Shown here one piece after another: positions 2,257 to 37,835 of a stretch of 64,000 nucleotides of DNA; position 1 is the stretch's first letter; every line of letters begins with the position of its first letter. The stretch comes from Planctomycetota bacterium. Lineage in GTDB: Bacteria; Planctomycetota; Phycisphaerae; UBA1845. Location of the stretch: assembly GCA_016860685.1 (NCBI GenBank), contig BOJX01000001.1, forward strand, positions 29,776 to 93,775, written 5' to 3'. The position numbers and the translations under genes were made by a program. The notes below the pieces were generated by a model. That model searched no databases. It was not told where the DNA came from and was given only the letters and a program-made list of their open reading frames with translations.

Positions 2257-3423
2257 TCAAGGTCCGGTGATGTTCCCTCTGAAGACGCGGTAATCCGGCA
2301 AGTCCACGTCGTTGTCGCCGTTGTTGTCGAAGACGCCGCAGCCGGAGTCCGCATCGCCGCCGGCGCCGGTGAAGCAATTCATAAAGGCGGCGATGTCACG
2401 CAAGTCCACGTCGCCGTCGCGGTCTGCGTCGCCGAATTCCGCTCCCGAGGCGGGCAGCGTCAGGTCCGTGAACACGATGAAGTGGTCTGCCGCCGCCGCG
2501 CTCGTGCCGGACGACAGCGCCGAGCCGCACTTCGCCAGCCCGCCGCCCAGCCCCTCGTCGCGCGAGTCGTACACTTCCGACGGCGGGTCATACCCGGAAA
2601 GCAATGCGCTGACGAGGATGTAATCCAGCCGGCGACCCGAACTGTCTCGCGTCGCGTCGCGCCCGTCCTTCTGACGCGCCTCCAGCGCGGTCACCTCCGG
2701 TCCGGAGGCCGAAGTCAGATAGATGAAAGGGTCGTTGCGGATGCCCTGCGCGTTCAGAATTGTTCGCAGATCATTGCCGAGACGCCAGTTCGTCGGCATT
2801 CCGCCGGGAACCTGCGTAAAAGGGTCCGGCGAGCGCGGCACGCTGTCGATCTCCTCGTTCATGTCCCCGAGGATCACGAAAGCGTCCACGTCCGTGTCCA
2901 GATCGCCGACGGCCTGAGCGGCGCGCAGCGACTCGACCGCGCGCCGAAACTCGTCCGCGTCGGCGGTTCCCGACTTCCAGTGCTCCGTCACAAGCGTCAG
3001 CGGCGCCGCGCCGGGAACGTCCAGCACGACCTCGACGATCAGGCGGGTGATGTCGTTGGCGTTGGAGTCGCCGGAAAGGTTCGCCGACGTGTTGATCGTC
3101 GTGCGCATAAAGGGATGCCGGCTCAGAAAGCCGTTGCGCAACGAGCCGAAAGGATTGCTCGTCGGGACGATCGTGTACGCGAAACCGGCGTCTTCGGCGA
3201 GGTCGGCGAAGTCATCCAGTTCGTCGCCCTCGATCTCCTGGATCGCCACCACGTCGGGACAGATGCGCCCGAGAATCGCCAGCGCCGCATTGTATTCGCT
3301 GCTGCCGCGTACGCCGATCGTCTCGAGGTTCCACGTCGCCACCCGCACGATCGTGTCCGCTGACACCCCCGCGGCGCCGCCTGCCAGGATGAGCACTGCA
3401 ATGATCCCGTCTTGCCTTCGCAC
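2257..3423 (-). CDS. secreted endonuclease/exonuclease/phosphatase (EEP) family protein with C-terminal dockerin-like module
   Basis: N-terminal signal-like segment, then VATWNLE...PDVVAIQEI...LGDMNE, which are EEP-type motifs. The C-terminus is GDADRDGDVDLRDIAAFMNCFTG...NNGDNDVDLPDY, two DxDxDG Ca-loop repeats. Confidence 0.75.
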   Translation of the reverse strand: MRRQDGIIAVLILAGGAAGVSADTIVRVATWNLETIGVRGSSEYNAALAILGRICPDVVAIQEIEGDELDDFADLAEDAGFAYTIVPTSNPFGSLRNGFLSRHPFMRTTINTSANLSGDSNANDITRLIVEVVLDVPGAAPLTLVTEHWKSGTADADEFRRAVESLRAAQAVGDLDTDVDAFVILGDMNEEIDSVPRSPDPFTQVPGGMPTNWRLGNDLRTILNAQGIRNDPFIYLTSASGPEVTALEARQKDGRDATRDSSGRRLDYILVSALLSGYDPPSEVYDSRDEGLGGGLAKCGSALSSGTSAAAADHFIVFTDLTLPASGAEFGDADRDGDVDLRDIAAFMNCFTGAGGDADSGCGVFDNNGDNDVDLPDYRVFRGNITGP

Positions 3424-9274: not shown

Positions 9275-9369
9275 ATGCCTGACAAACAAAGGGGGTGCGC
9301 CTCCCTCCGGGAGGCGAATATCATCAGAAAAACCGGCATCACAAAGACCGATAGTTCTTCAACGAGCTG
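9275..9369 (-). repeat. structured ~95-bp repeat, copy A (31 nt downstream of the metallophosphoesterase stop)
   Basis: Aligns with 37675-37772 and 13236-13321. Contains a GC hairpin at 9298-9316, then GAAAAACCGGCATCACAAAGACCGAT and TTCAACGAGCTG. Confidence 0.7.
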
Positions 9370-9400
9370 TTAGGATCCGCGCAGGCAAATCTCGCCGAGA

Positions 9401-13235: not shown

Positions 13236-13321
13236 TGCAGGGCTTCCTCCGTCCCTCCGAGACGCAAAATTCACCAGGAAAAACCGGCATCACCAGCGCC
13301 GATCATGAGTTCTCAATCTGG
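13236..13321 (-). repeat. structured ~95-bp repeat, copy B (diverged; 120 nt downstream of the serS stop)
   Basis: Shares CGTCCCTCCGAGACG (hairpin), GGAAAAACCGGCATCAC, CCGAT and GTTCTCAATCTGG with copies A and C. Confidence 0.55.
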
Positions 13322-29149: not shown

Positions 29150-30511
29150 GTGATCATGCTTGCCTTGCTGCTAGTCTTGGTTTCCGGGTTGCCTCAGACG
29201 CCGACGACGACGACGCCCGCGGAGCAGACCGCCGATCTCGTGCCCGACATCAAAGCGTTGCTGGCCCGGATGTCCAAGGCCGTCGAGGGCATCCGGTTCG
29301 GCGAGTACGATGTCCAACGCTACGGAGTCGGCAAACCGCTGGACGAGCGCGTCCCGCGCCTGAAGGGCCACGTCGTCTTTCAGCCGCTGACCCCGGACGA
29401 CCCGGTCGGGGCGAAGCTCAACATCCGCGGCGGGTACGAAGACGGATCGTCCAACCCGTTTCACCTGGTCTACGACGGCGAAACCTTCGCGATCCGCTTC
29501 GAGAAAGATGACGTCGTCTTCAAGGGCAAGCCCGCCGAGGACCGCTCCATCATCCGCCGCGAGGAGATCAAACTCGCTCTCGATGAGCTTTTTAACGTCG
29601 CGCGCATGCCTTATCTGCTCCAGCCGACGACGTTTGAATTTGAAGGCCGTCAGACCGTCGGCGGCGTCCCCTGCATCGTCGTCATGCTTTTCTCCGAATC
29701 CGAGGAAAGCCGGCTGCTGCCTCCGGACAGCCTTCAACGCAAGGTCTTCCGCTACCGCTGCTTCATCGCCGAGTCCGATGCGATCCCCCGCCGCATCGAA
29801 TACAAACTCGTTAAGATTCCCGACATCACCGGTGAGCAGGCGGAAACCGGAGTCGTGATGGAGATCACGAACCTCCGCCTGAATCACGATCCCCCGGCCG
29901 ACGCCTTTGCAATGCCGCCGGAACCAAAGAAGGACGTCGCGACGACGCCCGCGCCCGCCGTCCCGGCGCAACCCGCCGCTCCCGAATCCGCGGGGCAGAT
30001 TAAGGACCAGTCCGGACGGAAAAAGCGAGACCGTCTCAGCGTCGGCGACCCGGCCCCGGCGTGGGAACTCGAGGATCTTTCGGGAGCAAAACGCTCGCTC
30101 GCGGAATTCAAGGGTAAGGTCGTGCTGCTGGATTTCTGGGCGACGTGGTGCAAACCCTGCCTGATGGCGGCGCCGGACCTGGAGAAGATTCACGCGAAGT
30201 ACAAGGATAAGGCCTTCGTTCTGCTCGGCGTCAACGTTGAAAATGATCCCGCGCCGGCGAAACGCATGCTTGCGGAGAAAGCAACCGGGTATGCTCATGT
30301 CCTCAAAGCCGCGGAACTGATGCGCGAGTACCGCGTATCCAGCCTGCCGGGGTTCGTCATCATCTCTCCCGACGGCAGGATCGCTCACCGTCAGACCGGG
30401 TTCGGTCCGGGACTGGCCGACCAGTTGGGCAGGATCATCGACGCCGAGTTGGCGAAAACCGCCGCACCGAAGCCTGCGTCGGACGCCGCCGGAAAAACGC
30501 CGACACCCTGA
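29150..30511 (+). CDS. secreted TlpA-like thiol:disulfide oxidoreductase with an uncharacterised N-terminal domain
   Basis: Signal-like N-terminus. The C-terminal thioredoxin fold is GKVVLLDFWATWCKPCLMAAPDL...LPGFVIISPDG. Confidence 0.78.
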   Translation: MIMLALLLVLVSGLPQTPTTTTPAEQTADLVPDIKALLARMSKAVEGIRFGEYDVQRYGVGKPLDERVPRLKGHVVFQPLTPDDPVGAKLNIRGGYEDGSSNPFHLVYDGETFAIRFEKDDVVFKGKPAEDRSIIRREEIKLALDELFNVARMPYLLQPTTFEFEGRQTVGGVPCIVVMLFSESEESRLLPPDSLQRKVFRYRCFIAESDAIPRRIEYKLVKIPDITGEQAETGVVMEITNLRLNHDPPADAFAMPPEPKKDVATTPAPAVPAQPAAPESAGQIKDQSGRKKRDRLSVGDPAPAWELEDLSGAKRSLAEFKGKVVLLDFWATWCKPCLMAAPDLEKIHAKYKDKAFVLLGVNVENDPAPAKRMLAEKATGYAHVLKAAELMREYRVSSLPGFVIISPDGRIAHRQTGFGPGLADQLGRIIDAELAKTAAPKPASDAAGKTPTP

Positions 30512-32081: not shown

Positions 32082-33707
32082 TCACGAGTTGTGAACAAGA
32101 CGCCCGCTTTCCTCGATCCGCTCGCGCAACCGCCGCGCCGACGACTCCGACAACTGCCGCGCCGACAGTCGCCACCGCCAGTTGCCCCGCGCCACGCCCG
32201 GACGGTTCATCCGCGCCTCGCCGCCCAGCCGCAGCACGTCCTGCATCGGCAGCATCACAAGGTCCGCCTCCGACTCCAGCAGTCGGCGAATCAGCGCCTC
32301 ATGAACGCCCGAGCGACCGACTCCCGCATAATGCCTCACGCGCTCGAACGTCGCCTCCGGAAGCGACTCCAGCCAGCCCTTCAACGTGTCGTTGTCGTGC
32401 GTTCCGGTGAACCCCACGCACTTCCGCGGATACCCCTCGGGCCGGTGATACCGCGACCCCGCGCTTTCGTCCCCGAACCCGAATTGAAGCACGCGCATCC
32501 CCGGAAACCCGAAAGCATCCCGCAATTCCGCCGCCCGGCGCGTCAGCACACCCAGATCCTCCGCGACAACCGGAAGCTCTCCGAGCCGGTTGCGCAACGC
32601 GGAAAGCAGTCCCTCTCCCGGCGTCCGGATCCAGCGCCCGCGCCGCGCGTCCCGATCCGCCGCCGGAATCGACCACAGCCGGTGCAGCCCGATGAAATGA
32701 TCGAGGCGCACCGCGTCGAACATCTCCAGCGCTCGCCTGAATCGCGCGACCCACCACGCGAAACCTGTCTCAACGTGCGCCCGCCACCGGTATTGCGGAT
32801 GCCCCCAGCGCTGTCCGCGGCGGTTGAACAAGTCCGCCGGAACCCCCGAGACCGTCCGTGGCAGCCCCTTCCGATCCAGCTCGAACAACTCCGGCGACGC
32901 CCAGGCGTCCGCGCTGTCATGCGCCACGAAAAACGGAATATCCCCGAGCAGCGCCACCCCGCGCCGTGACGCCTCGTCGCGCAACCGCCCCCACTGCTCA
33001 TCCAGAATGAACTGACAGAACCGGGAAAACTCGAACGCCTCCTCCGACTCCGTCAGGCGATCCCGGTCCGCCGGCGTCATTCTTCGCGCAGCCCTCGGCC
33101 ACGACGTCCACACCCGCCCGCCGTGGGCGCGCTTCAGGGCGGCGAACGCCGCGAAGTCGTCCACCCACGGCTGCGACGTGACAAAGTGAACGTAATCCAG
33201 CCGGTCGCACAGCCCGGACGCCCGGAACTCTCGGAACGCTTCCCGCAGGAGCGGCATGCGCATCGCCGCCGCCGCCGCGTAGTCCGACCGATCGGACGAG
33301 TCGCCCCTCGCCGCACTTGCCCCCCAACCCTTCACCGCACCCGCCCGCCGAGCCCGCGCCGCCGCCCGACGCACCGTCGCCGCCCGACGCACCGTCGCCG
33401 CCCGACGCACCGTCGCACGATCCAGCAGACCCTGCTCGACCAGATCGTCCAGGTCGATCATCAGCGGACTGGCGGCGAACACAGAGGATGTCTTGTACGG
33501 ACAACCGCTGCGATCCACCGGATGCACCGGCAGCATCATCCACCAGCGAACCCCCGCGGTATGCAGGTAATCAAGAAACCGCCGCGCGCCGCCCAGATCA
33601 CCGCACCCGAACCCGCCCGGAAGCGACGTCACGTGCAGCAGAACCCCGCAGGCACGCTCAGCCGGCGACGGCGACGGCTTCAGGTATTGGCGCAACATCG
33701 GATTCAT
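32082..33707 (-). CDS. malQ: 4-alpha-glucanotransferase (amylomaltase, GH77)
   Basis: ATG 33707 gives MNPMLRQYL...GVLLHVTSLPGGFGCGDLG... Also DHFIGLHRLW, VVAEDLG and GTHDNDT. Confidence 0.9.
   Translation of the reverse strand: MNPMLRQYLKPSPSPAERACGVLLHVTSLPGGFGCGDLGGARRFLDYLHTAGVRWWMMLPVHPVDRSGCPYKTSSVFAASPLMIDLDDLVEQGLLDRATVRRAATVRRAATVRRAAARARRAGAVKGWGASAARGDSSDRSDYAAAAAMRMPLLREAFREFRASGLCDRLDYVHFVTSQPWVDDFAAFAALKRAHGGRVWTSWPRAARRMTPADRDRLTESEEAFEFSRFCQFILDEQWGRLRDEASRRGVALLGDIPFFVAHDSADAWASPELFELDRKGLPRTVSGVPADLFNRRGQRWGHPQYRWRAHVETGFAWWVARFRRALEMFDAVRLDHFIGLHRLWSIPAADRDARRGRWIRTPGEGLLSALRNRLGELPVVAEDLGVLTRRAAELRDAFGFPGMRVLQFGFGDESAGSRYHRPEGYPRKCVGFTGTHDNDTLKGWLESLPEATFERVRHYAGVGRSGVHEALIRRLLESEADLVMLPMQDVLRLGGEARMNRPGVARGNWRWRLSARQLSESSARRLRERIEESGRLVHNS
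33373..33426. repeat. 3 exact tandem copies of an 18-bp unit inside malQ
   Basis: CGCCCGACGCACCGTCGC x3 on the plus strand, encoding (ATVRRA)3 in malQ. Confidence 0.95.
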
Positions 33708-34103
33708 GCCCGCTACCTTACCGCAAACGACCCGCAAGGGAGCGGGCGCCCCCTACCGAGCCGCGACCGTGAGGGAGCTCGCCGCGCGAGCGCGAATGCG
33801 GGATCGACTCCGCCAGGGAGGATCGGAAGGTTCGCTTGCTGACGCGCGCGGCGCCGATCCGCGACCGTGAGGGAGTGCGAGATTCCGGGCTTTCATGCGG
33901 ATTTGAGACCACGTGTGAGGGTTCGGGACTCGGGTGCTCGGGGATCGTGCGGCGGGCGGCGTGAAAAATCAGGCGCGCCTCAAAAAAATCTCTTGACATC
34001 GGGGGGAGGGGGGCTTGGTAAGCTGGTTCGTTGACGCGTACCGGGCAGGTCTGAGGGGGTCGGCTCGACACGGGTGCGGGGCCGCGGGCTTCTGAACGGA
34101 AGG

Positions 34104-34131
34104 GGCTTCAGGCTTCAGGCTTCAGGCTTCG
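34104..34131. repeat. heptamer microsatellite GGCTTCA x3 + GGCTTCG
   Basis: Read directly, within the 800-bp non-coding region upstream of 34540. Confidence 0.95.
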
Positions 34132-34539
34132 GCGCTGAGGGAACTTTCGGCTTCAGTGCTGAGAGGTTTTGCGTCTCCGCATCAGGGAGGCTTCAAGCCT
34201 CCGAAGGGAGGGTCCGCATGAAGCGGGCCTGGCGGTCGATCCCCGTCGCGGACGCGTCCGTCCGGATCTTGATCCGGAACGGCTTGCGGCCGCGTTCTTC
34301 TGGCGGCGCGATTGTTTCTCGCCCCAACGGGGGCATCGTCCGCGCGCCCCGCCGTCCCCCCGATCCTCCCGAACCCGCGGCGCCAACCGTCCAGGATCGT
34401 CATTCCCGATGCCTTGGCGCGCCGCGGGACGGGGGTTCGCGCGGGCTTCAAGCCCGCTCAGAGGGCGATCCAGGGACGTGCATCGTGATGCCGGAACGTT
34501 TCCGGAACTTTTTCCGCATTTTTTCGTGGAGTTGCGAAC

Positions 34540-35070
34540 ATGTTTCATCATAAGATCGTAACGAAGAATGGCGCTTGGACGGCGATCGCGGGGATCGTCG
34601 TCGTGAGCGCGGGGATGGGGGTTTCCCGCGCGACCGGACCGGAGCCGACGCCGACGATGGTGATGGCGACGGAGGTGACGAGGATGATGACGCCGATGAC
34701 GGGGGCGACGGGGGCCGAGCCGATGCCGATGACGATGCCGATGGCGATGCTCGCGCCGTTCACGTGGACGGGCGGCGGCAGCGACCCGGATTACTGGAAC
34801 GAGACGGCGAACTGGTCCGGGGCGGGCGTGGGCTATCCGGATGACAGCTCGGACGACGCGACGTTTTCCGGCAGTTTTGGCTTCGCCGACTTGGACGCCA
34901 GCCGCACGATTGACGACCTCACCGTGGATGACGGCAGCGGGTCGTACTTCCAATCCGACGGTGAGAACAGCCGGACGCTGACCTGCGACACCGTGGTCAT
35001 CAGCGAAGACACAAGCGGCGATTTCGGCGGCGTTCACGTTACCGGACTGGCCGGCATTGAAACCAACTGA
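34540..35070 (+). CDS. secreted hypothetical protein with Met-rich segment
   Basis: N-terminal hydrophobic segment AWTAIAGIVVVSAGMG. 11 Met in residues 40-70 (TMVMATEVTRMMTPMTGATGAEPMPMTMPMAM). Then FTWTGGGSDPDYWNETANWSG. Confidence 0.65.
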   Translation: MFHHKIVTKNGAWTAIAGIVVVSAGMGVSRATGPEPTPTMVMATEVTRMMTPMTGATGAEPMPMTMPMAMLAPFTWTGGGSDPDYWNETANWSGAGVGYPDDSSDDATFSGSFGFADLDASRTIDDLTVDDGSGSYFQSDGENSRTLTCDTVVISEDTSGDFGGVHVTGLAGIETN

Positions 35071-35158
35071 CGCACAGATTTCCGCTCCGGACGGGTCCGG
35101 TCATCGCTTGAACCGGACGCTTTGACGGTCGGGCAGGTCTGGAATTAAGGAACGAGTC

Positions 35159-36358
35159 ATGAGATGCAGGTCGCGGCACGTGGTGTGCTGGGTCGTGTGC
35201 GTGGCGGGGCTGGCTTGCCACGCTCAGGCGCAGGTCAACCTGCCGCCAGGATTCGAGATCGTCGAGTTCGCGGAGAACGACTACGGCATAGCCAACGTGG
35301 ATCTCAACGACTGTGGGCAGGTTGCTTATTCGCAATGGCAGGCATCCAACGGTCACAGCGAGATCTTCGTCTATGACAATGGACGCCTCTTCAGAATCAC
35401 CCAGGGAGACGATCGTAATGTCCATCCTGAAATGAACAACGCAGGGCAGATTATCTGGGGAAGAGGCATTGATCGTAGTTCGGTTACGCAACTTGTGTTA
35501 TACAGTCACGGCCAGGAAACCGTCATTGACGAGAACGTCGACAGCTTCAATGGCTGGTCTATCAACAATGTTGGAAACATTGTGTGGTCGAGAAGCATAA
35601 GTTTGCGCTGCCCTCGGCAGGAGAATCTATTCCAATGGGACGGATCAACGGTGACCCAACTCACGTTCGACGCCGACCGCAGCAATGTGCAACCCAGCCT
35701 CAACGACCATGGTGAATTTGCATGGCCTTATTCGAATTTCTGCGACAATCCGTGGAGTGCGGAGGTTCTCGTTAGATATGCAGATCGGCAGATCACGCTG
35801 CCCTCTCCATACACCCAGAATCAAGCAACGGAGATTACCAACTCCGGTTTCGTGACCTGGCTCTCCACATCCCGGTTAATGCTTTGGACAGGGTCTGAAA
35901 GCAGGCTATTGCTGGAAAGAAGCGGGCGGGCGGCCTTAAACGAGTGGCTTCGGCTGTACGTGACCATTTTCGACTTCGAGAAGACCAGTTGGAACCCGTG
36001 GGTGCTCGATGTAACGGACGAGGGCATGAACATGTTCATGCTCAGGGACAGTGATTACTGGTTTTCCGATGGCTCCGTCAATGAGTGGGGAGAAATCGCG
36101 ACCTCCTGGTCCGAGGATCCTCCAAACAGTCGAAACCGCGGCGCCGTGATGTATCTGCGACGCATCCGCACCGGCGACAGCGAGTTTGACGGCGACATTG
36201 ATCTGCGCGACCACAAGCGGTTGGTTCGAGCGATGACCGGACCCGTCCGGACGGAAGGTCTGTGCGAAGATCGTTTTCTGGACATCAATCACGACGGCGA
36301 TCTGGACCTGGACGACTACGCCAGGCTCCAGAACGCCTTTACCGGGGCGACGCCGTAA
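35159..36358 (+). CDS. secreted repeat protein (six or more N-x-x-G-x-hydrophobic-x-W repeats, propeller-like) with C-terminal dockerin-like module
   Basis: Signal peptide ...VVCVAGLACHAQA. Repeats NDCGQVAYSQW, NNAGQIIWGRG, NNVGNIVWSRS, NDHGEFAWPYS, TNSGFVTWLST, NEWGEIATSWS. C-terminus GDSEFDGDIDLRDHKRLVRAMTGP...DINHDGDLDLDDYARLQNAFTG. GC is visibly lower; a 60-nt sample at 35401-35460 is 52%. Confidence 0.7.
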   Translation: MRCRSRHVVCWVVCVAGLACHAQAQVNLPPGFEIVEFAENDYGIANVDLNDCGQVAYSQWQASNGHSEIFVYDNGRLFRITQGDDRNVHPEMNNAGQIIWGRGIDRSSVTQLVLYSHGQETVIDENVDSFNGWSINNVGNIVWSRSISLRCPRQENLFQWDGSTVTQLTFDADRSNVQPSLNDHGEFAWPYSNFCDNPWSAEVLVRYADRQITLPSPYTQNQATEITNSGFVTWLSTSRLMLWTGSESRLLLERSGRAALNEWLRLYVTIFDFEKTSWNPWVLDVTDEGMNMFMLRDSDYWFSDGSVNEWGEIATSWSEDPPNSRNRGAVMYLRRIRTGDSEFDGDIDLRDHKRLVRAMTGPVRTEGLCEDRFLDINHDGDLDLDDYARLQNAFTGATP

Positions 36359-36382
36359 GTCGCTCCGAAGGAGCATTCAACC

Positions 36383-37393
36383 ATGAGGAACATTCTTGTG
36401 ATTCTGATCGCGGTGCTGACCTGCGCCGCGTGCGCCGGTGAACCGGCGTTCGCCCAACTGACGCAAACCACGTGGCAGGGTGATGTGAATACGAATTGGT
36501 TTGAAGACGACAACTGGTCGGGCAGCGTCGTGCCCGACGACACATTCGAGGTGGTCATTCCCCACAACCCCACAGGCGGGAGTGTTTGGCCTGTCATCGA
36601 CAACAGCGAGGTGGATGCCGAGGCCGGCAAGCTCACGATGACGGTGAGCGGCGGCACGCGGGCGAAGCTGACGATCCAGTCGGGGTCGGTGCTCATTCTC
36701 GGCAACGGCGGAACCTTGACCTCCACCGTGGACGGCGACCTCGTCCTCGGCGACGGCTCGCTGCCTTACGGTAGTCTGAAGATCAACGGCACGCACACCA
36801 TCACCGGGAAGGGCGGGACGATCGAGCTGAAGGAGAAATCCTCGATCATTCCGCTCAACGACACCGACGACCTACTGATCCTCACGGGCGACAGCGGATG
36901 CACCGGGTATCCCGACGACCGCGCGTGCAGCCTGACGGTCTTCGGCATCGGCTACATCGCGGTGCGCCTGGACAACCGGGCGTTCGTCGTCGGGAAGGAC
37001 GCCGGAGGAACGCCGCTGAAGCTCGACGGTTACGACATGACCGGAACCAGCGTGGGCTGGTGGATCGCGGAGAACGGCGGGTCGATCGCCATCGGGACGG
37101 ACATCACCGGCGCCTGCACCTGGCTGACCAAGGCGAACGCCCCCGGCTCCTTTCTGCTGGGTCATACGGACGTGGGCGACGGGTGCGTGGCCGCGACCGG
37201 CGAGGTGATCCTCAAGTCCGGGTTGCTGAGCGTGCTCGACGGTTCGCGGTTCTGCACGTCGGGCAAGCTGACGTGGAAGTCGGTGGACGTGAACGGCACG
37301 CCGTCACAGGCGCAGATCGTCACCACCGGCGCCGCCACGGCGACCTTCGGCCTGGGCAGCGCGAGCTCCTGCACGGCGTGCAACGTCGAGTGA
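36383..37393 (+). CDS. secreted hypothetical protein, beta-helix-like
   Basis: Signal peptide MRNILVILIAVLTCAACAGEPAFA. TTWQGDVNTNWFEDDNWSG parallels the motif in the 34540 protein. The rest of the sequence is rich in Gly, Thr and Ser. Confidence 0.7.
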   Translation: MRNILVILIAVLTCAACAGEPAFAQLTQTTWQGDVNTNWFEDDNWSGSVVPDDTFEVVIPHNPTGGSVWPVIDNSEVDAEAGKLTMTVSGGTRAKLTIQSGSVLILGNGGTLTSTVDGDLVLGDGSLPYGSLKINGTHTITGKGGTIELKEKSSIIPLNDTDDLLILTGDSGCTGYPDDRACSLTVFGIGYIAVRLDNRAFVVGKDAGGTPLKLDGYDMTGTSVGWWIAENGGSIAIGTDITGACTWLTKANAPGSFLLGHTDVGDGCVAATGEVILKSGLLSVLDGSRFCTSGKLTWKSVDVNGTPSQAQIVTTGAATATFGLGSASSCTACNVE

Positions 37394-37537
37394 GGGCGGG
37401 GGTCGAGGGGGGTCAGGACAAGGACAAGGCGCAGACGGAGCGAGGCTCCTGCGCGCTGGCCTCGGCGGGGCAAGCACCTGCTCCTGCTCGACGGACTGCC
37501 CGTAAGGCGGAGCGATGGACCTCCCGAGACTGAACTT

Positions 37538-37573
37538 CCGGGACCACGGAAGGACCGCCTTTCGTGGTCCCGG
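37538..37573 (+). terminator. hairpin downstream of the 36383 gene
   Basis: Perfect 11-bp stem CCGGGACCACG / CGTGGTCCCGG with a 14-nt loop. It is followed by a moderately T-rich stretch, not a clean U-tract. Confidence 0.35.
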
Positions 37574-37674
37574 GATGGTCTTCTGGTTTCCGCCGACCGA
37601 CCGCACGCAACCGCGCCCCTCCCCCGGACGCCGATGACGGCGGGCAATGCCCGCCCCACGCGCTCCAGGCATAG

Positions 37675-37772
37675 CAGCCCGTTGAAAAAGGGGTGCGCGT
37701 CCCTTCGGGACGCGAATTTCATCGGGAAAAACCGGCGTCACAAAGACCGATCCCGGGTTCTTCAACGGGCTG
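37675..37772 (-). mobile_element. structured repeat copy C, MITE-like (12-bp terminal inverted repeats, ATAG on both flanks); 63 nt downstream of the tyrA stop
   Basis: CAGCCCGTTGAA (37675-37686) is the exact reverse complement of TTCAACGGGCTG (37761-37772). ATAG occurs at 37671-37674 and 37773-37776. Internal hairpin at 37696-37714. Confidence 0.55.
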
Positions 37773-37835
37773 ATAGGCAAAGGACTCGAAGATGAGCGAT
37801 CCGGGGCAAGCTGCCGCGGAGCAACGAAGCAGGCG

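Follow-up and report, generated by a model that had tools for sequence, protein, structure and literature searches.

Host-adapted pathogens are the textbook bearers of repeat-driven contingency loci, in which inbuilt mutational mechanisms vary both expression and product, and of families of mosaic surface proteins. Both are interpreted there as adaptive responses to immune pressure. Chlamydiae, which belong to the same superphylum as the planctomycetes (Planctomycetes-Verrucomicrobia-Chlamydiae, PVC), display a set of paralogous beta-helix surface proteins, the Pmps, some members of which are reported to show poly-G length variation. In the hmw loci of Haemophilus influenzae a 7-bp tandem array lies between the promoter and the coding region, and its copy number differs among strains and loci and alters expression (PMC2424069). 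The C-stretch of Bordetella fim2, fim3 and fimX and the poly-G tract of Neisseria porA are length-polymorphic tracts situated between an upstream promoter or activator element and the -10 box of a surface-protein gene (PMC1891110, PMC3899988). From planctomycetes, dockerin-bearing proteins that are non-cellulosomal have been described, and a 'planctosome' has been proposed (PMC6461901). Here we analyse a cluster of three genes, termed g1, g2 and g3, in a stretch of 64,000 nucleotides (the window; positions 29,776 to 93,775 of contig BOJX01000001.1) from the Planctomycetota metagenome-assembled genome (MAG) BroJett003, in which g2 is BroJett003_00440. The architecture of a contingency locus is already known; novelty lies in the protein families, in the phylum and in the ecology. 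The same architecture is found here on three uncharacterised protein families of uncultured Phycisphaerae.

On balance we lean towards reading the locus as a phase-variable, recombination-shuffled surface-protein cassette, that is, as a contingency locus. As in described contingency loci, repeats whose unit is not a triplet occur in the promoter, leader or 5' coding region, and repeat number differs between near-identical genomes. Relatives were collected in a family scan of one genome per species, which returned 78 loci to which three family hidden Markov models (HMMs) were applied; the loci of relatives carry labels such as L001. L003 is from a sister strain (GCA_048499695.1) with about 93-95% DNA identity to the window, and L001 and L085 belong to HS102, a closely related 3.8-Mb genome (contig of 3.82 Mb). 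The three genes, as initially annotated, are co-directional, with open reading frames (ORFs) found at the expected places on the plus strand and gaps of 88 and 24 nt between them (Table 1).

Table 1. Coordinates of the features of the g1-g2-g3 locus, in positions of the window
Feature	Position	Strand	Description
malQ (GH77), upstream neighbour	32082-33737	-	
malQ-to-promoter spacer	33738-33992		direct repeat 33756-33777 and 33854-33875, 98 nt apart
Promoter-like site	33993-34024	+	TTGACA (33993-33998), 20-nt spacer, TAAGCT (34019-34024)
Conserved non-coding leader	34025-34539	+	last ~60 nt invariant, GGAG included
Leader heptamer array	34104-34131	+	(GGCTTCA)x3 then GGCTTCG; TRF period 7, 3.9 copies, 100% matches
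g1	34540-35070	+	ORF of 176 amino acids
Inverted copy in g1-g2 spacer	35071-35139		81% over 70 nt to g2 coding sequence 36200-36266, which encodes LVRAMTGPVRTEGLC
g2	35159-36358	+	ORF of 399 amino acids
g2 signal peptide	35159-35230	+	amino acids 1-24; starts MRCRSRHVVCWVVCVAGLACHAQA, followed by QV; ends AQA before QV
g2 seven-bladed beta-propeller	35246-36163	+	amino acids 30-335
g2 mosaic block	35342-35737	+	amino acids 62-193, ~blades 2-4; about 394 bp, gap-free
g2 dockerin-like double Ca-loop module	36173-36340	+	amino acids 339-394
g3	36383-37393	+	ORF of 336 amino acids
3' non-coding element	37458-37772		hairpin 37538-37573; 85% identical to L085 3634-3948

The promoter-like site upstream of g1 stands in the context A7-TCTC-TTGACA-TC-G6AG6-CTTGG-TAAGCT, in which the G6AG6 tract occupies 34001-34013. 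Among strains sharing about 93-95% DNA identity this tract varies, reading G14 in L001, G12 in L002, G13 in both L003 and L103 and G6AG6 in L097, and the site itself is conserved in another species (L015). A sigma-70 scan makes no call at this position because the spacer exceeds 18 nt. The arrangement resembles that of fim and porA, as here a tract of variable length separates the two elements (TTGACA-TC-G12-14-CTTGG-TA(A/G)GCT), and the genome AMR_MDS_1165 contains four paralogous cassettes with TTGACG-C12-14-...-TAC(G/C)TT about 200 nt before the g1 domain; the -10 elements are putative. The spacer is 19-21 nt, longer than in porA and nearer to that of the activator-dependent fim promoters, and, unlike in these systems, the tract of the window is interrupted by an A. 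Runs of G or C of at least 12 nt in the 922 kb of loci are all found directly after TTGAC(A/G) upstream of a cassette, barring L005 and L006. In these two loci the runs (G15 at L005 3901-3915; G20 at L006 3901-3920, at the contig end) follow cTTGAGC and are located 686 nt downstream of g3, where the genes are convergent.

The promoter-like site is followed by a conserved leader. About 530 non-coding nt before g1 are retained in other strains and in another species, even where g2 identity is 34-38%, and positions 34218-34539 are 92% identical to L005, whose g1 DNA is 77% identical. The leader has an RNA fold z of -2.36, and no Rfam family was found in it or in the spacers. Indels between relatives in the leader (alignment A4) are not multiples of three, and the region is therefore not protein-coding; these indel lengths lead to the rejection of the ORFs at 34074-34553 (plus strand) and 34153-35037 (minus strand), and of the 338-amino-acid gene annotated in L003. 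The GGCTTCA array, located about 80 nt further downstream, has four units in the window and two in its sisters (a 14-nt indel, L001 and L002). The initial annotation had referred to a repeat-rich non-coding region of 800 bp upstream of the cluster; the spacer, at 802 nt, is indeed there, but its repeats, though meaningful, are few (the G tract, the heptamer array and the direct repeat spaced by about 98 nt).

The hmw system provides a close parallel to these heptamer arrays. In L031 and L062 arrays of 15 and 11 heptamers, respectively, start 36-37 nt past promoter-like sites called by the scan (TTGACT-17-TATGTT and TTGACT-17-TATATT), and in the window the array is in the leader; L029 and L031 differ in an ACCACCG array, of 13 or 15 units. 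A further likeness is that hmw1 and hmw2 are two copies of a three-gene cluster that encodes a secreted surface protein of the beta-helix type with polymorphic binding domains. Unlike hmw, the cassette has no sequence or domain kinship with that system and no TpsB transporter or glycosyltransferase, it belongs to environmental Planctomycetota and not to a mucosal pathogen, and an effect of the repeats on expression is here inferred.

The concentration of repeats in front of g1 was quantified in 35 non-redundant cassettes, using up to 900 nt upstream of the g1 domain. Long simple-sequence repeats number 17 in these 29.3 kb, compared with 9 in the 793 kb elsewhere in the same loci, a density of 0.58 versus 0.011 per kb and thus an enrichment of about 50-fold. 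These repeats are distributed over 16 of the 35 cassettes, and their units are 7 (seven cases), 8 (three), 1 (five) or 2 (two) nt long and never a multiple of three. In the second HS102 cassette an AGACCCG array is placed right after the g1 ATG. With nine units the g1 ORF ends after 27 amino acids, while five units, the state found in three other assemblies, yield a g1 of 200 amino acids. The 665 nt upstream are 100% identical among these cassettes and include a strong ribosome-binding site, AGGGAGG, before the ATG. In this one paralogous cassette repeat number is shown to set the predicted g1 reading frame open or closed.

Variation of a different kind is evident within g2. On both sides of the mosaic block the g2 genes of the window and L003 are 99-100% identical, while the block itself is only about 63% identical at the DNA level, its differences falling on codon positions 3, 1 and 2 in the numbers 81, 42 and 23. 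Synonymous differences in the block are saturated (pS 0.83, with a non-synonymous pN of 0.25), whereas the rest of g2 has a dS of 0.034 and a dN of 0.006; the block is therefore an anciently diverged segment inside a recently shared gene. The flanking housekeeping genes have a higher dS (0.09-0.15) than the rest of g2, the comparison with L003 giving dS 0.09 and dN 0.018 for the part of malQ analysed and 0.148 and 0.012 for tyrA; for g3 the values are 0.096 and 0.024. Both block alleles were recovered from independent samples, allele A in identical form from 7 contigs of several sequencing runs, and allele B from 30 contigs. That the block was copied by gene conversion from another paralogue of this genome was considered and rejected for want of a donor; the closest sequences to the two block alleles (68% and 72% identical) belong to other organisms, and the databases contain no close donor. 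Hypermutation by a diversity-generating retroelement (DGR) was also rejected, as the substitutions are balanced over all 12 types and the differences are mostly at third codon positions; neither a direct repeat of the block nor a conserved neighbour resembling a reverse transcriptase (RT) was detected.

The exchange of g2 extends beyond this pair of strains. Between the window and L005 identity is 0.82 for g1 and 0.78 for g3 but 0.29 for the g2 propeller, and L004 and L016 display a similar profile (0.75, 0.68 and 0.31, respectively). The reverse pattern is observed between the window and L004, where the propeller, at 0.61, exceeds g1 (0.46) and g3 (0.48). Across the family these identities show g1 and g3 to travel together, with g2 swapped independently by recombination. 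The g1-g2 spacer, in addition, contains an inverted copy of a part of g2 (Table 1). A 29-nt core of this copy (35086-35114) pairs with 36223-36251 at 96.6%, and the two arms bracket about 1.1 kb of g2 (35115-36222). This lineage has the inverted repeat, 2-4 further cassettes show it weakly, and most cassettes are without it. The junction predicted for an inversion, GATTTCCGCTCCGGACGGGTCCGGTCATCGCTCGAACC, was not found in metagenome_contigs, a collection without this species (best g2 match 41%). Such a pair may have been left behind when a g2 fragment was inverted, may mark a site of inversion or may allow long-range RNA pairing.

The cassette is not confined to the window. Relatives of g1, g2 and g3 co-occur in differing flanking contexts. 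In about 45 of the 78 loci all three are on one strand, arranged as g1-g2-g3 or g1-g3-g2 and in some cases with g2 in tandem copies, and the g1 HMM (from alignment A3) places g1 upstream of g2 or g3 in 33 loci. The hosts are nearly all Phycisphaerae MAGs, and a single genome can contain many copies, with about 17 cassette loci in SRP193661_co1_22, about 9 in SURF_32, about 8 in SJ659 and 3 in HS102. Across the cassette loci there is no conserved fourth neighbour gene and no conserved neighbour resembling an integrase, another mobility gene or an RT, and no relatives were found on viral contigs. We conclude that g1-g2-g3 is a conserved multi-copy unit of predicted exported proteins in Phycisphaerae, residing in unrelated genomic contexts and having no fourth partner. 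According to the initial annotation, its view of the cluster would fail if the genes were nowhere else syntenic, showed host-typical codon usage and each had an annotated homologue; none of these three held. Of the accessory cell-surface or adhesion module that it proposed, the accessory and surface-related part agrees with the number of copies and the variety of their contexts, and likewise with the mosaicism and the repeat tracts.

Tandem arrangements were seen in several of these loci. The 3' end of another g3 is directly upstream of g1 in L085 (1-105) and L111 (1-246), two successive g2 genes are present in several loci (L035, L044, L051, L087, L091 and L092), and the 3.82-Mb contig of HS102 terminates inside a tandem cassette array. 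In the second HS102 cassette g3 lacks 1 nt that is present in L111 (L085 3298-3307) and is split as a result; the deletion is not at a repeat and marks either a pseudogene or an assembly error. Cassette genes were also encountered on short contigs binned outside Planctomycetota, namely L051 and L061 (labelled Gemmatimonadota) and P0007 (labelled Candidatus Brocadia sinica), for which mis-binning is more likely than transfer between phyla.

The protein encoded by g2 is, according to its AlphaFold2 model, a seven-bladed beta-propeller with a dockerin-like tail. The sequence contains N-x-x-G-x-(V/I/F)-x-(W/Y/T) seven times, at a spacing of about 44 residues, in agreement with the six or more N(D/N)xGx(V/I)xW repeats noted initially. 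The model (57 sequences; predicted local distance difference test, pLDDT, 90.1) consists of 28 strands in residues 32-335, arranged as seven four-stranded antiparallel sheets round an axis, and three terminal helices. The end of the protein, in which a two-loop DxDxDG module had been recognised, contains two canonical 12-residue Ca loops (D340-S-E-F-D-G-D-I-D-L-R-D351 and D375-I-N-H-D-G-D-L-D-L-D-D386), each followed by a helix; this is the layout of type I dockerins with their two EF-hand-like loops, and the modelled tail helices are at 349-360, 369-374 and 384-394. Dockerin_1 (PF00404) matches 16 of the 57 g2 family members at E<0.01 (best 7e-5), and scores 17.0 bits on the g2 of the window, below the gathering cutoff of 22.9. 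A search for relatives of g2 gave 58 homologues. The tail is the most conserved part of g2, its mean pairwise identity being 0.62 compared with 0.32 for the propeller. In common with the planctosome proteins, the C-terminal duplicated module of Ca loop and helix is carried here by secreted non-cellulolytic proteins, at least two of them unrelated; the g2 module differs in its sub-threshold Dockerin_1 score and in its characteristic MTGP...LC.CRF linker. With the TIGR05002 (NxxGxxAF_repeat) and DUF7453 'choice-of-anchor' proteins g2 shares tandem N-x-x-G-x-x-(aromatic) repeats of about 44 residues, export and a sorting or anchoring end. This similarity is sub-threshold (TIGR05002, 19.5 bits against a cutoff of 50; DUF7453, 2 of 57 members, best E=2e-4), and the last repeat position is W in g2 as opposed to AF in TIGR05002.

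The same dockerin-like tail (GDADRDGDVDLRD...CFTG...FDNNGDNDVDLPDY) is present on a secreted protein of 388 amino acids encoded at 2257-3423 of the window (minus strand), whose body was judged to be endonuclease/exonuclease/phosphatase-like from reading the translation alone, and many other proteins in loci L066-L084 bear such a tail. As it is attached to an unrelated protein, the tail is a general C-terminal tag in this genome, which suggests a general tail receptor rather than one encoded by the cassette.

An N-terminal signal or anchor had been ascribed to each of the three proteins, and this was borne out by signal peptides in g2 and g3 and by a conserved basic and hydrophobic start in g1; AlphaFold2 models the N-terminal signal segments of g2 and g3 as helices. 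The g1 product appears to be a small secreted or anchored protein, in which a signal peptide or membrane anchor is joined by a (Pro/Thr/Ala)-Met linker of variable length to a conserved C-terminal domain of about 100 residues (amino acids 74-176; 34759-35067), running from FTWTG..WN..ANWSG through DASRTIDDLT to AGIETN. The Met-rich character of the linker comes from a hexanucleotide repeat, (GCCGAT)x6.3, read in frame at 34714-34750, and in more distant relatives a plain signal peptide leads directly into a YTWTGGG motif. The sequence GGAG (34528-34531), 8 nt before the g1 ATG at 34540, is invariant among relatives, which favours the start of the 176-amino-acid protein over the deposited annotation of 128 amino acids; the g1 start is corrected accordingly. 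The motif said to be common to the N termini of g1 and g3 is present but short (BLASTP E=0.013; hhalign, 28 columns, E=6e-4, probability 29%), and g1 as a truncated paralogue of g3 was rejected, because this 28-column motif is all that the two have in common.

The g3 protein starts with MRNILVILIAVLTCAACAGEPAFA followed by QL (the signal peptide ends AFA before QL), continues with a TTWxG..NW..NWSG motif and has an all-beta, solenoid-like body with conserved Cys and polar motifs (LDNRAFVV, FCTxGKLxWKS), ending in C..C. Its AlphaFold2 model (pLDDT 86.7) gave no Foldseek match to PDB or viral structures below E=5e-3. The best E is 0.06, with TM-scores of about 0.2, so the beta-helix-like label of the initial annotation lacks a significant match, although the weak list is dominated by beta-helices and is suggestive; the model suggests a beta-solenoid-like protein without a solved relative. 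A profile search retrieved 962 g3 relatives among 1.84 billion representative proteins, most of about 300 residues. The N-terminal module of g3 recurs within giant proteins, of which two of the six scanned carry sorting tails of the type IX secretion system (T9SS). Pmps are autotransporters with a C-terminal beta-barrel, and g3 has no such barrel. No Autotransporter domain was found by Pfam in g1, g2 or g3, g3 ending in a short Cys motif where type V proteins have their barrel, and the cassette proteins have no match to Pfam Chlam_PMP.

We propose that slipped-strand mispairing, acting on the G tract and on the heptamer array, would switch or tune transcription of the operon, for which Bordetella fim, Neisseria porA and Haemophilus hmw are precedents. 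The secreted propeller would be the part that faces a ligand or target, held at the cell surface through the Ca-dependent dockerin-like tail, and g1 (anchor and linker) and g3 (solenoid) may be its co-evolving structural partners. Recombination would renew the exposed blades under frequency-dependent selection, imposed for example by phage, grazers or changing substrates. Tentatively, and as a possibility, this may be extended to environmental Phycisphaerae of reactors, groundwater and sediments, which might practise programmed surface variation through arrays of slippage-switched cassettes whose blades are reshuffled between alleles or paralogues, a counterpart of pathogen variation that would probably be driven by phage or grazers and would involve a new dockerin-tethered complex. 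If the proposal is correct, bet-hedging of this type serves against environmental pressures (phage, protists, patchy substrates), and the cassettes point to the proteins that poorly known bacteria expose to the outside. The repeat lengths and block alleles also provide a sequence marker that can be tracked in public time-series metagenomes. In the literature library searched, neither the cassette nor NxxGxxAF repeats nor any phase variation of Planctomycetes was the subject of a paper.

Several points weigh against a phase-variable cassette. The site in the window is promoter-like by pattern alone, its spacer of 19-21 nt being beyond the sigma-70 optimum, and the G tract of the window, being interrupted, would be relatively stable. 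About half of the cassettes are without a long repeat, and the marine metagenome loci contributed a single T10 run (L090), most of them having little upstream sequence. Differences in repeat number between strains reflect mutability over evolutionary time and not switching within a population, and the lengths of repeats and homopolymers were taken from short-read consensus assemblies, which can mis-state them. Finally, no cohesin partner for the g2 tail was identified among the cassette genes or their conserved neighbours.

The cassettes might instead encode a set of secreted enzymes that process polymers or polysaccharides, displayed on a cellulosome-like 'planctosome', in which a propeller enzyme tagged with a dockerin would cooperate with a beta-helix lyase or hydrolase, with many copies providing many substrate specificities and not variation of the immune type. 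Such a role we consider unlikely, though it deserves the most attention among the alternatives. It is in keeping with the dockerin-like tail of g2 and its recurrence on the endonuclease/exonuclease/phosphatase-like protein, and with the non-cellulosomal cohesin-dockerin complexes proposed for Planctomycetes (PMC6461901). The best fold match of g2 is a seven-bladed lyase, Vgb (2qc5, E=2e-11), the weak fold list of g3 consists of pectate/alginate lyases and polygalacturonases, and the conserved polar residues H138, D163, D197 and R199 of g3 could be catalytic. Against this, none of the cassette proteins matches a catalytic family in Pfam, NCBIfam or PDB sequence profiles. The 356 PDB matches of g2 at E<=1e-3 are generic propellers of 10-14% identity, the six-bladed PknD sensor-derived propellers and TolB being among the top matches beside Vgb, and those of g3 are not significant. 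Frame-shifting and promoter repeats would be unusual for catabolic enzymes, and a cohesin was not found near the cassettes. An enzymatic role is compatible with the repeats and the mosaicism, and differs from the contingency locus solely in the role given to the proteins. In agreement with the initial statement that no function could be assigned, none of the three proteins has an annotated homologue in Pfam, NCBIfam or PDB sequence profiles. For g1 and g3 there was no match in Pfam, NCBIfam, PHROG, PADLOC or PDB sequences, and g1, g2 and g3 are all without sequence relatives among solved structures.

Base composition bears on a further alternative, a recently acquired foreign island whose low GC content is not yet adapted to the host. 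The g2 gene has a GC content of 0.556 compared with about 0.66 for the window, its 1-kb bin (35001-36000; 0.55) is the lowest of the 64 in the window, and 500-nt windows across 35000-36250 are at 0.51-0.57, against 0.64-0.70 in those adjoining. The dip is restricted to g2, so that the original description of a lower-GC three-gene cluster is too broad: GC content at third codon positions (GC3) is 0.685 in g2, while g1 (0.847) and g3 (0.881) are host-typical, malQ and tyrA being at 0.81-0.86. Within g2 it is the propeller-coding part that is low, the signal peptide and tail being closer to normal. The dip is also a property of the family, as g2 GC3 is lower than that of g3 in 39 of 42 cassettes from many genomes (mean difference -0.08) and lower than that of g1 in 31 of 33 (mean difference -0.10), which rules out recent import into this genome as its cause. 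Repeated exchange among lineages of differing GC is a possible cause, because the cassette family is also present in genomes of 54-60% GC; weaker codon selection on g2 is another. Flanks that differ between close strains, upstream in L001 and L003 and downstream in L097 and L099, would suit an island. The window contains no tRNA gene, however, the loci have no conserved integrase-like neighbour and no viral relatives, and the family is restricted to Phycisphaerae with several copies per genome. An island was rejected, since the atypical composition is limited to g2 and is shared by g2 throughout the family, and we regard this explanation as improbable.

It is more improbable still that the repeat-length and mosaic differences are artefacts of short-read assembly or MAG binning superimposed on a static operon. 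Illumina assemblies are prone to errors in homopolymers and tandem repeats, several of the arrays contain runs of N or abut a contig end, and the leader is where many assemblies of the window's species are broken, L098 and L104 beginning at or within the GGCTTCA array; the front-end repeats explain such breaks at these loci. The block alleles, conversely, are each supported by multiple contigs, and the block is in frame and gap-free, with its differences distributed over codon positions as described above. In addition, more than 15 cassettes, sequenced in projects independent of one another, have their repeats at corresponding positions, and the five-unit AGACCCG state was assembled three times independently.

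An anti-phage defence or toxin-delivery system, which the multi-copy, variable and shuffled nature of the cassettes recalls, as in many defence and polymorphic-toxin loci, is scarcely credible given that all three products have export signals, that no PADLOC or PHROG match was obtained and that Pfam and NCBIfam revealed no nuclease, toxin, ATPase or immunity-like domain. A defence system was rejected on the lack of a PADLOC match, and a phage origin because viral contigs yielded no relatives, PHROG gave no match and no viral fold matched significantly.

The surroundings of the cassette vary between strains. Downstream, the neighbour is a chorismate mutase/prephenate dehydrogenase gene (tyrA) on the minus strand. 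The boundary element on this side had been called MITE-like (resembling a miniature inverted-repeat transposable element); a hairpin and an element of about 90 nt that recurs twice more in the window are present, and this looks like a small dispersed repeat element, in line with the initial suspicion. The copy of the 3' element in L085 sits 3' of the paralogous HS102 cassette, and the part of about 90 nt (37686-37777) has its two extra copies at 9288-9374 and 13250-13313. In L097 and L099 (Logan DRR335824 and DRR258780) the cassette is 99.96-99.98% DNA-identical to that of the window and the g2 protein is identical. From position 37770, the end of the dispersed repeat, a short-chain dehydrogenase gene replaces tyrA in these two contigs, either because the DNA was rearranged at the repeat or because the assembly joined the two parts.

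Upstream of the cassette, the neighbouring gene differs among close strains, being AP_endonuc_2 in HS102 (L001) and GH77 in L003 and the window. The direct repeat in the malQ-to-promoter spacer has more copies in L003, where several matches to 33738-33879 and 336 gap columns at 33600-33800 were observed. Within malQ (33200-33400) a tandem peptide repeat, ATVRRA, occurs three times; the alignment with the sister strain has 36 gap columns at this place, so that the number of in-frame repeats seems to be polymorphic in this housekeeping gene.

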